This document shows positions 1 through 19,380 of a DNA stretch of 19,380 nucleotides, in pieces; within the stretch, counting starts at the first letter, position 1; each line of letters opens with the position of its first letter. The translations under genes and the position numbers were made by a program. The DNA lies in assembly GCF_003334355.1 (NCBI RefSeq), contig NZ_QOWP01000048.1, one strand, 5' to 3'. The DNA comes from Escherichia coli (GTDB lineage Bacteria; Pseudomonadota; Gammaproteobacteria; Enterobacterales; Enterobacteriaceae). The notes below the pieces were generated by a model. The model had not been told where the DNA came from. It ran no database searches and saw only the letters and a list, made by a program, of their open reading frames with translations.

Positions 1-77
1 ATCTGATGGAAATGGAAGCCACGCAAGCACCTTAAAATCACCATCATACACTAAATCAGTAAGTTGGCAGCATTACC
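1..77 (-). mobile_element. IS1-family insertion sequence, terminal fragment (insA-proximal end, iso-IS1-like variant); element continues left of the window
   Basis: Reverse complement of 1-77 reads GGTAATGCTGCCAACTTACTGATTTAGTGTATGATGGTG...GTGGCTTCCATTTCCATCAGAT, i.e. an IS1 terminal inverted repeat followed by the GTG start and first codons of InsA (VASISI). Roughly 10 mismatches to the IS1 copy at 19203-19380, so a different isoform. Terminus at base 77. Confidence 0.85.
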
Positions 78-336
78 AAATTTTAATTACACTTAAGGTG
101 TATATTTTCTATGCAAGCCATCAATTAAAGAGGTGTAATGTGCTGATGACTATTTGTAATCGTTATACATTCTGACCTGGAGTCAGAAGGTATTTCTCTG
201 TCTGTGTATTCGCAGGCAGTGTGGTTGATTACATGAAATTCAGTACATTTGTCCTTCTCGCCTGCCTTTCGTCATTACCGACGGTATTGAATTTCGTTTT
301 CCCCATTGGGGTTCTCCGGACAAGGAGTTGTTTGTT

Positions 337-1569
337 ATGCCACGTTTTTTTGCCCGCCATGCCGCCACGCTGTTTTTCCCGATGGCGTTGATTTTGTATG
401 ACTTTGCTGCGTATCTGTCGACGGACCTGATCCAGCCAGGGATCATTAATGTGGTCCGTGATTTTAATGCCGATGTCAGTCTGGCCCCGGCTGCCGTCAG
501 TCTCTATCTCGCTGGAGGCATGGCATTGCAGTGGCTGCTGGGGCCGCTTTCCGACAGGGTTGGCCGCAGGCCGGTGCTGATTACCGGGGCGCTAATATTT
601 ACCCTTGCCTGCGCTGCGACAATGTTCACAACGTCTATGACACAGTTTCTTATCGCGCGTGCAATTCAGGGCACCAGTATCTGTTTTATTGCCACCGTTG
701 GTTATGTCACGGTGCAGGAGGCGTTCGGACAGACAAAAGGGATCAAGTTGATGGCGATTATCACCTCCATCGTACTGATTGCGCCGATTATTGGCCCGCT
801 TTCCGGCGCAGCTCTGATGCACTTTGTGCACTGGAAAGTCCTTTTTGCCATCATTGCGGTTATGGGTTTTATCTCATTTGTTGGCTTACTGCTGGCGATG
901 CCAGAGACGGTGAAGCGCGGCGCGGTTCCATTTAGCGCCAAAAGCGTCTTGCGCGATTTTCGTAATGTCTTTTGCAATCGGCTGTTCCTCTTTGGCGCAG
1001 CAACCATCTCTTTAAGCTATATCCCCATGATGAGTTGGGTGGCTGTCTCGCCGGTGATCCTGATCGACGCGGGCGGCTTAACAACTTCGCAGTTCGCCTG
1101 GACACAGGTTCCGGTGTTCGGCGCGGTGATTGTCGCGAATGCCATCGTGGCGCGTTTCGTTAAAGATCCGACCGAACCGCGCTTTATCTGGCGTGCCGTA
1201 CCCCTTCAACTGGTTGGCCTCGCGCTGTTGATTATCGGCAATCTGCTGTCACCGCACGTCTGGCTGTGGTCGGTGCTGGGCACCAGTCTGTATGCTTTCG
1301 GGATTGGTTTGATTTTCCCGACCTTATTCCGCTTTACGCTGTTTTCCAATAACTTACCGAAAGGGACCGTCTCCGCATCGCTGAATATGGTGATCCTGAT
1401 GGTGATGTCTGTCTCGGTCGAAATCGGCCGCTGGCTGTGGTTTAACAGCGGTCGCTTGCCGTTTCATCTGTTAGCCGTTGTGGCAGGCGTTATCGTCGTT
1501 TTCACCCTGGCCGGATTGCTTAATCGCGTGCGCCAACATCAGGCTGCCGAGCTGGCGGAGGAGCGGTGA
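337..1569 (+). CDS. mdtM: MFS multidrug efflux transporter MdtM (410 aa)
   Basis: 413-aa ORF 328-1569. AAGGAG at 322-327 with ATG at 337 (9-nt spacer), so the TTG at 328 is rejected. Multiple hydrophobic helices and the MFS motif-A-like [11 protein letters not shown]. Sequence recognised as E. coli MdtM/YjiO. Confidence 0.9.
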
Positions 1570-1609
1570 TTTTTGCGCGATCCTGCCGTCAGGCTCTATT
1601 CTTAACATT

Positions 1610-2890
1610 ATGAATAAACTCATTGAACTCAGACGCGCCAAAATGTTGGCGCTCTCTTTACTGCTTATCGCCGCTGCTACCTTTGTCGTTACGCTGTTTT
1701 TGCCGCCCAATTTTTGGGTGAGCGGCGTGAAGGCGATTGCTGAAGCGGCGATGGTCGGCGCGCTGGCGGACTGGTTTGCGGTGGTGGCGCTGTTTCGCCG
1801 CGTGCCGATTCCGATCATTTCTCGTCATACGGCGATTATTCCGCGTAATAAAGACCGGATTGGCGAAAATCTCGGCCAGTTCGTGCAGGAAAAATTTCTC
1901 GATACCCAATCGCTGGTGGCATTGATTCGACGTCACGAACCGGCGTTGTTGATTGGCAACTGGTTTAGTCAGCCAGAAAACGCCCGCCGCGTTGGTCAGC
2001 ATCTGTTGCAGATCATGAGCGGTTTTCTTGAACTAACCGATGATGCGCGTATTCAGCGCCTGCTTAAGCGCGCGGTCCACCGGGCGATTGATAAAGTCGA
2101 TCTTTCTGGCACCAGTGCGTTGATGCTGGAGAGTATGACTAAAAACGATCGTCATCAGGTGCTGCTGGATACGCTGATCGCACAGTTGATCGCCCTTCTC
2201 CAGCGCGATAAATCGCGCAAGTTTATTGCCCAGCAAATTGTTCGCTGGCTGGAGAGCGAGCATCCACTGAAAGCCAAAATTTTGCCCACTGAATGGCTGG
2301 GCGAACATAGCGCGGAGTTGGTTTCTGACGCGGTGAATTCTTTGCTTGATGATATCAGCCGCGATCGTGCGCATCAGATCCGCCATGCGTTTGATCGCGC
2401 TACCTTCGCCCTGATCGAGAAACTGAAAAACGATCCGGAAATGGCGGCGCGAGCCGATGCCGTAAAAAGCTATCTGAAAGAAGATGAAGCTTTTAACCGC
2501 TATCTCAGTGAATTGTGGGGGGATTTACGGGAATGGCTGAAAGCGGATATCAACAGTGAAGATTCTCGTGTGAAAGAACGTATCGCGCGGGCTGGTCAAT
2601 GGTTTGGCGAAACGTTAATTGCCGATGATGCCTTGCGGGCGTCGTTAAATGGTCATCTGGAACAAGCCGCACACCGCATTGCGCCTGAGTTTTCCGCATT
2701 CCTGACTCGCCATATCAGCGACACGGTAAAAAGCTGGGACGCACGGAACATGTCGCGGCAAATCGAGTTAAATATCGGCAAAGATCTCCAGTTTATCCGT
2801 GTCAACGGTACGCTGGTTGGCGGTTGTATTGGACTTATTTTGTATTTGCTGTCGCAGCTCCCGGCCTTGTTCCCCCTCGGCAATTTATAG
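1610..2890 (+). CDS. yjiN: DUF445-family inner membrane protein YjiN (426 aa)
   Basis: In-frame ATG at 1610 inside ORF 1478-2890 gives 426 aa, the length recalled for K-12 YjiN. N-terminal transmembrane segment ([19 protein letters not shown]) then a long charged helical region. Confidence 0.85.
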
Positions 2891-3005
2891 AAATCCATGA
2901 AAAACTAAGTGGCTAACCGCGAGAGAGATCAAATAAACCACACTAAAAGAATGGTAATAATGTGGCCTCTTTTCATTATCTCCCGTGGTACGGGGAAGGA
3001 AAATC

Positions 3006-18867: not shown

Positions 18868-18890
18868 AGAGCCTGCCAATGGCGGGCTCT
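18868..18890 (+). terminator. Putative gntP terminator hairpin
   Basis: AGAGCCTGCC-AAT-GGCGGGCTCT: 10-bp stem (one G-U pair), 3-nt loop, 10 nt after the gntP stop. The downstream tract GTTCGGATTG is only moderately U-rich. Confidence 0.45.
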
Positions 18891-18923
18891 GTTCGGATTG
18901 TCGGCAAAGTGCGCTTTGTTTAT

Positions 18924-18960
18924 GCCAGATGCGACGCTGACGCGTCTTATCTGGCCTACA
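18924..18960. repeat. REP (repetitive extragenic palindromic) element
   Basis: GCCAGATGCGACGCTGACGCGTCTTATCTGGCCTACA matches the REP consensus. Located between convergent gntP and the fimH remnant. Confidence 0.65.
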
Positions 18961-19031
18961 AAGGGCTAACGTGCAGGTTTTTAGCTTCAGGTAATATTGC
19001 GTACCTGCATTAGTAATGCCCTGTGATTTCT

Positions 19032-19202
19032 TTATTGATAAACAAAAGTCACGCCAATAATCGATTGCACATTCCCTGCAGTCACCTGCCCTCCGGTACG
19101 TGCGTAATTTGCCGTTAATCCCAGACTTACCGCCGAAGTCCCTACTGCTCCTAACGATACCGTGTTATTCGCTGGAATAATCGTACCGTTGCGCATCAAC
19201 TG
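19032..19202 (-). pseudogene. fimH: fimH 3' remnant (C-terminal 56 codons of the type 1 fimbrial adhesin), truncated by IS1 insertion
   Basis: Minus-strand translation reads QLMRNGTIIPANNTVSLGAVGTSAVSLGLTANYARTGGQVTAGNVQSIIGVTFVYQ*, matching the FimH C-terminus as recalled. The frame is cut exactly at the IS1 terminus (19202/19203). Confidence 0.85.
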
Positions 19203-19380
19203 GGTGATGCTGCCAACTTACTGATTTAGTGTATGATGGTGTTTTGAGGTGCTCCAGTGGCTTCTGTTTCTATCAGCTGTCCCTCCTGTTCAGCTACTGA
19301 CGGGGTGGTGCGTAACGGCAAAAGCACTGCCGGACATCAGCGCTATCTCTGCTCTCACTGCCGTAAAACATGGCAACTGC
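19203..19380 (+). mobile_element. IS1 insertion sequence, left end (IRL plus start of insA); element continues right of the window
   Basis: GGTGATGCTGCCAACTTACTGATTTAGTGTATGATGGTG is the IS1 terminal inverted repeat, followed by the insA coding start. Confidence 0.9.
19257..19380 (+). CDS. insA: IS1 InsA (transposition regulator), N-terminal 41 codons, partial
   Basis: GTG start at 19257; translation [41 protein letters not shown] matches the InsA zinc-finger N-terminus. Confidence 0.8.

Follow-up and report, generated by a model that had tools for sequence, protein, structure and literature searches.

Does a segment of the Escherichia coli chromosome that begins in one IS1 element and ends in another form a unit with those elements, or are the two copies separate marks of separate events? 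The question is raised by a stretch of 19,380 nucleotides, analysed here at its full length and referred to as the window. Nothing sets the window apart from other chromosomal DNA of E. coli: it reaches from mdtM to gntP, and each of its ends lies in an unrelated IS1 (Table 1). Very probably, it is a native core segment between two variable islands, each removed and replaced by one IS1 in this lineage. The gene order of the core is mdtM, yjiN, yjiM, yjiL, ytiA, yjiK, yjiJ, kptA and yjiH, followed by yjiG, iadA, hypT, iraD, a yjiC pseudogene, uxuR, uxuB, uxuA and gntP. At least 80% of the window was covered in 4,997 of the 5,426 complete E. coli genomes that made up the genome sample. As a whole, it was collinear with EAEC 042 and with the ST167 reference NDM6 at 99.5% (99.46% for NDM6), and the best overall match among the 5,426 genomes was no better than 99.5%. 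A source lineage with no match above this value among complete genomes could differ beyond the window.

Table 1. Features of the window and their coordinates
Feature	Position	Strand	Remarks
Inner end of the left IS1 (IRL, insA-proximal 77 nt), IS1F type	1..77	-	Terminal inverted repeat at ~55-77
Native region upstream of mdtM	78..336	+	K-12 homology begins exactly at the terminus of the left IS1, ~270 bp upstream of mdtM
Conserved core, genes in their native order	337..18858	.	From the ORF list and annotation of the collinear 042, K-12 and NDM6 loci
GTGGATTGC in yjiJ, the 9-bp target of the left IS1 in strain 720632; intact in the window	6339..6347	+	
3' remnant of fimH, 171 nt, cut by the right IS1	19032..19202	-	Last 56 codons and stop
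Inner end of the right IS1 (IRL, insA-proximal 178 nt), IS1A type	19203..19380	+	insA GTG at 19257

A preliminary description had taken both window ends to be IS1 left ends in opposite orientation, abutting the internal DNA, and this was confirmed by IS1 matches and by an inverted repeat. Bases 1-77 matched annotated IS1 elements at 100% (E=3e-31) and bases 19198-19380 at 98.9% (E=1e-84), values far outside chance expectation. In a repeat search, the ends paired as an inverted repeat of 48 nt with 92% complementarity. The IS1 terminal inverted repeat (~23 bp, GGTRATG...CCAACTTA) is present at both, as GGTAATGCTGCCAACTTACTGAT on the left (reverse complement of window 55-77) and GGTGATGCTGCCAACTTACTGAT on the right (19203-19225), and the corresponding IRR ends, GGTAATGACTCCAACTTA, are present in the full-length elements of 042. 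On the left, insA starts from a GTG at window position 22 (IS position 56) on the minus strand and reads leftward out of the window, with 7 codons visible (VASISIR). On the right, the GTG corresponds to IS position 55, and the 41 InsA residues translated from it match the IS1/IS1595 zinc-binding domain (NCBIfam NF050000, E=3.4e-11). A complete IS1 measures ~768 bp, and a programmed -1 frameshift joins its insA to insB'. In 042 and NDM6, whose inner junctions are identical to those of the window, the full elements are 767 bp each and extend outward; full lengths and outer flanks are given here as they stand in such relatives, not in the source genome. An earlier estimate of about 10 differences over 77 nt between the ends agrees with the 9 substitutions and one 1-nt indel that were counted, and over the full 767 bp the two copies differ by 68 mismatches spread along their length. 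The earlier assignment to distinct IS1 isoforms also holds: in relatives, the left IS1 is 99.1% identical to the IS1F of K-12 and 91.1% to the right IS1.

The left IS1 sits between brnT, in the yjiA-brnAT region, and the region upstream of mdtM. Elsewhere in E. coli the same site holds a restriction, or 'immigration control', island of hsd/mcr/mrr type; in a genome lacking this IS1, homology reaches exactly to the outer end of the element and is followed by restriction genes. In 042, the insB of the left IS1 carries an additional frameshift and an internal stop and its insA is intact; the element is predicted to be an IS1F-type pseudogene, unable to encode its own transposase. Other IS1F-type elements match the left end at 98.8-100%. 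The left junction (window 1-160) was found in 448 of the 5,426 complete genomes. The outer junction of the element is identical in at least 1,003 genomes and is joined to two different inner flanks in different lineages. In strain 720632, the left IS1 alone gave rise to a duplicative inversion of window 78-6347: two identical copies of the element are present, and the inverted copy of the segment is bounded by two oppositely oriented copies of the 9-bp target. An anchored outer junction with alternative inner flanks, together with the inversion in 720632, is typical of IS1 deletions and inversions. Because this copy cannot make its own transposase, recent activity would need transposase from other IS1 copies.

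The right IS1 stands in for positions 6510-15355 of the K-12 locus, or 8,846 bp. Missing by comparison with K-12 are fimB, fimE, fimA, fimI, fimC, fimD, fimF, fimG and most of fimH; because fimB through most of fimH is missing, the source strain cannot make type 1 fimbriae. One end of the element abuts the final 171 nt of fimH; the other lies 264 bp upstream of the expected fimB start, after which relatives continue into nanC. The remnant translates to ...GVTFVYQ followed by the stop and aligns with K-12 fimH as far as the IS1 end; annotations of 042, C9 and NDM6 list it as a partial fimbrial protein. Both the insA and insB frames of the right IS1 are intact in 042. A run of four T residues upstream of insA, which no other sampled IS1 copy matched, marks this copy. 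Strains 042 and NDM6 carry the same fimH remnant, and their IS1A proteins have the same accession. The right junction (window 19123-19282) was covered in 360 of the 5,426 genomes, with 100% identity among the matches listed; other IS1 copies matched this query at 98.8% or less. The outer junction with the 042-type flank was present in 307 genomes, and the remaining 53 genomes had the right inner junction without coverage of that flank. E. coli B also has an IS1 near fimB, of an unrelated class.

Homology to K-12 ends precisely at the terminus of each IS1, and the order in 042 and NDM6 is yjiA-brnAT-IS1(pseudogene)-mdtM...gntP-fimH'-IS1A-nanC. In 042, the left element lies between ...CGCTGTCG and AAATTTTAA..., and the right between ...CATCAACTG and CAACTAATC...; no target-site duplication was found at the flanks of the left copy in this strain, nor at those of the right. 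Simple independent insertions, each with its own duplication, had been named earlier as the contrary outcome, and neither element of 042 has such a duplication. A simple IS1 insertion is flanked by a direct duplication of 8-9 bp; its absence does not speak against the identity of the elements as IS1 but shows that they were rearranged after inserting. Because both copies lack target-site duplications and have outer flanks unlike each other, both IS1 are rearrangement scars, neither simple insertions nor arms of a composite transposon. A 5-nt similarity, CAACT, occurs on both sides of the right IS1 and may be due to chance.

IS1-promoted adjacent deletions and duplicative inversions are classical IS1 biology, as in deletions of the gal region. 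The scars described here resemble the classical deletions in that one IS1 is kept, with one old and one new flank, no target duplication, and endpoints anchored on one IS end; the event in 720632 resembles the classical duplicative inversions in its second identical inverted copy and its inverted 9-bp target. Unlike the classical events, those at this locus are historical, known by reconstruction only, and IS1-IS1 recombination would leave the same scar. The proposed order of events begins with the insertion of each IS1 at a site that is still one of its two junctions. Loss of the adjoining DNA would have followed, either through intramolecular transposition from one end of the element (an IS1-promoted adjacent deletion) or through recombination between two IS1 copies in the same orientation. 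The final structure fits both routes alike and does not tell them apart. The scars themselves would be old, each of single origin, inherited, and moved between lineages as homologous recombination exchanged the core DNA around them.

Both junctions occur together in at least ~171 genomes, including 042 and NDM6, a lower bound taken from the rank-spread of the whole-window search, in which a match near rank 171 still spans 1-19380 in one piece. The left and right IS1 assort independently: strain C9 has the right junction but a different inner flank at its left IS1, and strain 720632 has the left junction but a different fimH lesion. The right junction is found on uxu-gntP backgrounds with 99.7%, 99.5% and 99.0% identity to the window, and ~98% in the case of 042. 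Strains 042 and NDM6 are 99.86% identical to each other over 31 kb. Over uxuB-gntP (15000-19000) the window departs from both by ~2% and resembles C9 instead; it also has two differing bases in its 178 nt of the right IS1. Its UxuB allele is extremely common (49,240 index blocks in an exact-protein look-up), mostly in fim-positive genomes, and is uninformative about the source. In composition the window is a mosaic, built from haplotypes that ordinary E. coli carry, and its two IS1 copies do not act together. ST167 is said to belong to phylogroup A, and 042 to phylogroup D. We tentatively suggest, as a possible but somewhat doubtful extension, that the coding-dead IS1F-type element, which borders the restriction-gene island, may still be mobilised in trans and may repeatedly drive structural change from an anchored end. 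As a separate suggestion, homologous recombination may carry the linked fim-null IS1A allele between distant lineages (ST167 and 042). The left IS1 is read as a recurrent driver because two inner deletion endpoints occur across more than 1,000 genomes and the duplicative inversion in 720632 is perfect.

Two inverted IS1 copies flanking a DNA segment call to mind composite transposons such as Tn9 or Tn1681, in the second of which the IS1 copies are also inverted. A 19-kb unit of this kind, mobile as a whole, could draw on the intact transposase frames of the right IS1 and on the ends of the left IS1, which are still mobilisable in 720632. However, the outer 9-mers in 042 differ (TCGCTGTCG versus CAACTAATC), leaving no footprint of transposition as a unit, and the native K-12 order is kept throughout, from yjiA... 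on one side of the segment to ...nanC on the other. The segment is at this locus in 4,997 of the 5,426 genomes, most of which lack the IS1 copies; in other genomes the left and the right element occur separately; and every match in the plasmid collection lay in a chromosome-like replicon, the records being 373 kb to 4.9 Mb long. Unlike Tn9 and Tn1681, the arrangement combines isoforms 9% divergent, one of them coding-dead, at a native chromosomal site, with neither an outer target duplication nor a second location. With outer 9-mers unlike each other and no second location or genuine plasmid copy found, we rejected a composite transposon as extremely improbable; the preliminary description had reached the same view, which the lack of a shared outer 9-bp duplication, the native yjiA...nanC synteny, the coding-dead left copy and the restriction of matches to chromosome-sized replicons all uphold. 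Homologous recombination between the copies, inverted and ~19 kb apart, would instead make the segment invertible, and IS-mediated inversions are common in IS-rich enterobacteria. This reading is very improbable, if slightly less so: the predicted inverted junction, sought with a synthetic query made of the brnT-side outer flank and the reverse-complemented fimH'/gntP end, was present in 0 of 5,426 genomes. The copies are only 91% identical (those 68 mismatches over 767 bp), a divergence that strongly lowers RecA-dependent recombination, and the sole inversion seen, that of 720632, involves a new second copy of the left IS1 and not the right one. Of the IS-mediated inversion or deletion anticipated earlier, one part stood: IS1 rearrangement did happen, by each copy alone, as the missing adjacent DNA, the absence of duplications and strain 720632 indicate. 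Inversion between the copies, seen in none of the 5,426 genomes, did not stand, and neither did deletion between them, since inverted repeats would not yield a deletion.

A more serious possibility, if still not the probable one, is that the bracketing is mainly an artefact of sampling: the DNA would come from an IS1-rich genome such as Shigella, as a short-read contig or a window that stops at repeats, and any piece of this kind would end in IS1. Both ends lie inside IS1, only 77 and 178 nt deep; the depth of 77 nt would correspond to a common assembler k-mer size; and no complete E. coli genome matches above 99.5%. The window does start and stop inside IS1, the bracketing partly reflects where window or contig was cut, and the ends probably fall in IS1 because IS repeats are natural break points of windows and contigs. 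The junctions, however, are fixed chromosomal features in finished genomes, which means that assembly noise does not account for the IS1 copies; among the genomes that bear the junctions are ones with 4, 6 and 12 IS1-matching places, and the window combines ordinary E. coli haplotypes. An artefact of sampling is compatible with two separate scars and does not replace them, explaining only where the window stops. The Shigella-like, IS1-rich background once proposed for this DNA is likewise not needed, since the left junction is present in 448 complete E. coli genomes and the right in 360, among them genomes with only 4-12 IS1-matching places.

As two independent scars, the arrangement is itself ordinary, being present in hundreds of sequenced E. 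coli, and the replacement of fim by IS1A is already known. In clades B/C of ST167, the fim locus is reported to be replaced by IS1A, with loss of type 1 fimbriae (Nat Commun 2025, PMC12405470). The ST167 reference NDM6 (CP083869.1) shares with the window gntP, the 171-nt fimH remnant, IS1A, nanC, and the junction of brnT, IS1 pseudogene and mdtM; PMC12405470 is not known to describe the fimH remnant or the left IS1, both of which are present here. For the fim deletion of 042, a literature search on enteroaggregative E. coli returned only reviews. In Shigella and EIEC, fim is inactivated by IS1 and by deletions (Bravo et al. 2015, PMC4374849). The lesions in question, as here, affect the leuX-side island beside gntP and include IS1 insertions and deletions that remove fim genes; none in that paper is described as a fimB-to-fimH replacement with the fimH 3' end retained by gntP and nanC kept. 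The junctions of the window are documented in E. coli proper, the comparison with Shigella being with the lesions listed in PMC4374849.

The consequences are modest and mainly a matter of bookkeeping. IS1 elements at contig ends such as these are to be read as independent scars and not as a transposon. The left IS1 marks the loss of the chromosomal restriction, or 'immigration control', island. A fim-null genotype, with no FimH adhesin and no type 1 fimbriae, is marked by the right IS1; it is of practical relevance to FimH-targeted drugs and vaccines and has already been described for the ST167 clone, which is carbapenem-resistant. As a pair, the junctions serve well as markers of lineage and haplotype. 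[quoted passage not shown]

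The identification of both window ends as left (insA-proximal) ends of IS1, put forward in the preliminary description, was upheld by the sequence itself, by the InsA domain, and by matches to annotated IS1 elements (E=3e-31 for the left end, E=1e-84 for the right). The 41 visible residues of InsA matched the IS1/IS1595 zinc-binding domain (E=3.4e-11), and a repeat search of the window paired the two ends in inverted orientation over 48 nt, with 92% complementarity. Pairwise alignment of the ends of the left (IS1-L) and right (IS1-R) elements over 77 nt gave nine substitutions and one 1-nt indel, in agreement with the difference of about 10 positions first described. 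That the window starts and ends inside IS1 most likely follows from the cut points of the window or contig; the halves of the elements beyond it were seen in the genomes of relatives.

Features of the window, in window coordinates
Feature	Position	Strand	Remarks
IS1-L end	1-77	minus	reverse complement GGTAATGCTGCCAACTTACTGATTTAGTGTATGATGGTGATTTTAAGGTGCTTGCGTGGCTTCC...; insA GTG at 22
mdtM	337-1569		first gene of core
yjiN, yjiM, yjiL, ytiA, yjiK, yjiJ, kptA, yjiH, yjiG, iadA, hypT, iraD			core order after mdtM
yjiC (frameshifted), uxuR, uxuB, uxuA			core order after iraD, continuing to gntP
gntP	17515-18858		last full gene of core
fimH 3' remnant, 171 nt	19032-19202	minus	translates to ...GVTFVYQ*
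IS1-R end	19203-19380	plus	GGTGATGCTGCCAACTTACTGATTTAGTGTATGATGGTGTTTTGAGGTGCTCCAGTGGCTTCT...; insA GTG at 19257

The source genome is absent from the 5,426 complete E. coli genomes that formed our sample. The top whole-window matches there covered positions 1-19380 as a single piece at 99.5% identity, the best value found, so both junctions are present in finished genomes. In the EAEC strain 042, the left part reads yjiA, brnA, brnT, an IS1 of 767 bp annotated as 'frameshifted; internal stop', and mdtM; the right part reads gntP, the fimH remnant, an intact IS1A of 767 bp, about 1.2 kb of intergenic DNA, and nanC. The ST167 reference strain NDM6 has a structure equal to that of 042. IS1-L is 99.1% identical to K-12 IS1F; its insA is intact, and its insB carries the internal stop common to K-12 IS1F plus an additional frameshift. 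IS1-R is IS1A-like, with intact reading frames and a run of four T upstream of insA; other sampled IS1 copies matched the junction query at 98.8% or less. The two elements are 91.1% identical to each other (68 mismatches and 2 gap columns over 767 bp). Within the 178 nt visible, IS1-R differed from the 042 copy at window 19306 (T vs G) and 19328 (T vs C), two differences for which gene conversion between IS1 copies is a possible source, as are consensus effects at a contig-end repeat.

Between the two IS1 ends lies unremarkable E. coli core chromosome with its genes in native order, and 4,997 of the 5,426 genomes cover 80% or more of the window at the native locus. The DUF2686 gene yjiC (12571-13321) was frameshifted in the window, 042, and NDM6, and intact in K-12 and in E. 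coli strains 720632 and C9. When aligned to K-12, homology stopped exactly at both IS1 termini. IS1-R occupies the place of K-12 locus positions 6510-15355 (8,846 bp), and the DNA missing there comprises fimB, fimE, fimA, fimI, fimC, fimD, fimF, fimG, and the first 732 nt of fimH. On the left, what follows the mdtM upstream region in K-12 is rpnD, yjiR, yjiS, yjiT, and mcrBC, a restriction or 'immigration control' island. In a genome lacking IS1-L, brnT-side homology reached exactly to the outer terminus of IS1-L and was followed by a restriction endonuclease gene and hsd remnants. Taken together, these two comparisons indicate that IS1-L joins two points that restriction-island DNA separates in other strains. 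In strain Z1323HEC0355, mdtM is absent and rpnD directly adjoins yjiN (locus excerpt L018, 10745-13130, counted within the excerpt, as for all excerpts here); the boundary of this variable island is thus different again.

The flanks of both elements were compared in 042, where IS1-L lies between ...CACCTCGCTGTCG and AAATTTTAATTAC... and IS1-R between ...GCGCATCAACTG and CAACTAATCTTATC...; no 9-bp direct repeat was found beside either, and their outer 9-mers are unlike each other. Hence simple insertion accounts for neither element, and the pair is not what transposition of a composite unit would leave behind. Simple independent insertion, each IS1 with its own target duplication, had been named in the preliminary description as the finding that would count against it; it was found for neither element in 042. 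Two standard readings of such a structure are IS1-promoted adjacent deletion and recombination between two directly oriented IS1 copies; either one leaves a single IS1 without a duplication, and the two are indistinguishable from the final structure. The earlier view that this is no simple composite transposon was supported: the flanks share no duplication, synteny is native, and the segment occurs in the plasmid collection only in chromosome-like records, 373 kb to 4.9 Mb in size. The Shigella-like, IS1-rich background also proposed is not needed, as some genomes with the junctions have only 4-12 IS1-matching places and the window is an ordinary E. coli mosaic.

The left junction (window 1-160) was spanned in 448 of the 5,426 genomes and the right junction (window 19123-19282) in 360. 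The structure from gntP through the fimH remnant and IS1 to the nanC side was at least 80% covered in 307, and about 53 genomes carry the right inner junction in another outer context. The brnAT-IS1-L-mdtM structure was at least 80% covered in 1,003 genomes, more than the 448, because the outer junction of IS1-L is constant and many genomes have a second, unrelated inner flank. This alternative flank is a 96-nt dienelactone-hydrolase remnant (L004 4380-4621, L019 1703-1943; strains MB06232, EC931, and C9); in the alternative allele the mdtM upstream region and first ~10 codons differ, and the brnT/IS1 outer junction is unchanged. Neither left-junction allele has a target duplication. A constant end combined with varying distal endpoints is what IS-anchored deletions classically leave. 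Among whole-window matches listed at spread ranks, that at about rank 171 still spanned 1-19380 in one piece (99.5%) and that at about rank 341 in four, so that at least about 171 genomes carry both junctions. The two junctions assort independently. C9 combines the alternative IS1-L flank with the window's right junction; its two further IS1 insertions within the segment, between ytiA and yjiK (L019 6874-7568) and between iraD and idlP (L019 14226-14922), show continuing IS1 activity at the locus in an IS1-rich strain. Conversely, 720632 pairs the window's left junction with another fimH lesion, in which a 366-nt remnant adjoins IS1F-ykiE-fecIRABCDE (L007 6301-7381); fimH has thus been struck by IS1-type elements more than once.

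Of the IS-mediated events suggested in the preliminary description, rearrangement through IS1-L by itself does occur, and inversion between the pair was not supported. A synthetic query in which the outer flank on the brnT side was joined to the fimH remnant/gntP end in reverse complement, and which any inverted genome would span across one IS1, found an inversion between IS1-L and IS1-R in none of the 5,426 genomes. Rearrangement through IS1-L was seen in 720632 (NZ_CP025842.1; L006 19760-27563), where window 78-6347, the block from mdtM through yjiK into yjiJ, is inverted between two 100%-identical IS1-L copies in inverted orientation. Both new junctions carry the 9-bp target GTGGATTGC (window 6339-6347, within yjiJ), its two copies being inverted relative to each other. 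This structure looks like a textbook duplicative inversion; it is either that or insertion followed by recombination. Transposase was presumably supplied by other IS1 copies, since IS1-L itself cannot encode it; this genome has at least 40 IS1-matching places.

Over positions 1-15000, 4 sites separate the window from 042/ST167; over 15000-19000 (uxuB, uxuA, and gntP) about 88 do, or about 2%, and the window is close there to C9, the best match to its right 4.6 kb (99.7%). The window is thus a recombination mosaic made up of haplotypes found in ordinary E. coli, with the junction of fimH remnant and IS1A on several different uxu-gntP haplotypes. Strains 042 and NDM6, reportedly of different phylogroups, share 99.86% identity across 31 kb from yjiA to nanS, both IS1 copies included (L001 vs L021). 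This identity suggests that the whole region was horizontally transferred by recombination.

The observation of two IS1 copies bracketing the segment is real and was correctly described. The two are old, mutually unrelated scars, each at the edge of a variable island: IS1-L marks where the restriction island was lost, and IS1-R where the fim operon was. The core segment that they enclose lies at its native location. The fim-null allele, with IS1A in place of fim in ST167, is already described in PMC12405470, and its reference genome (CP083869.1) has the fimH remnant, IS1A, and the left IS1 pseudogene, all as in the window's relatives. The fim lesions of Shigella and EIEC (Bravo et al., PMC4374849) are of like kind to the fim loss here, although none is described there as the lesion of the window. 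Sequenced E. coli commonly share this arrangement, and the part of it that carries biological meaning, the fim-null allele, has been published.
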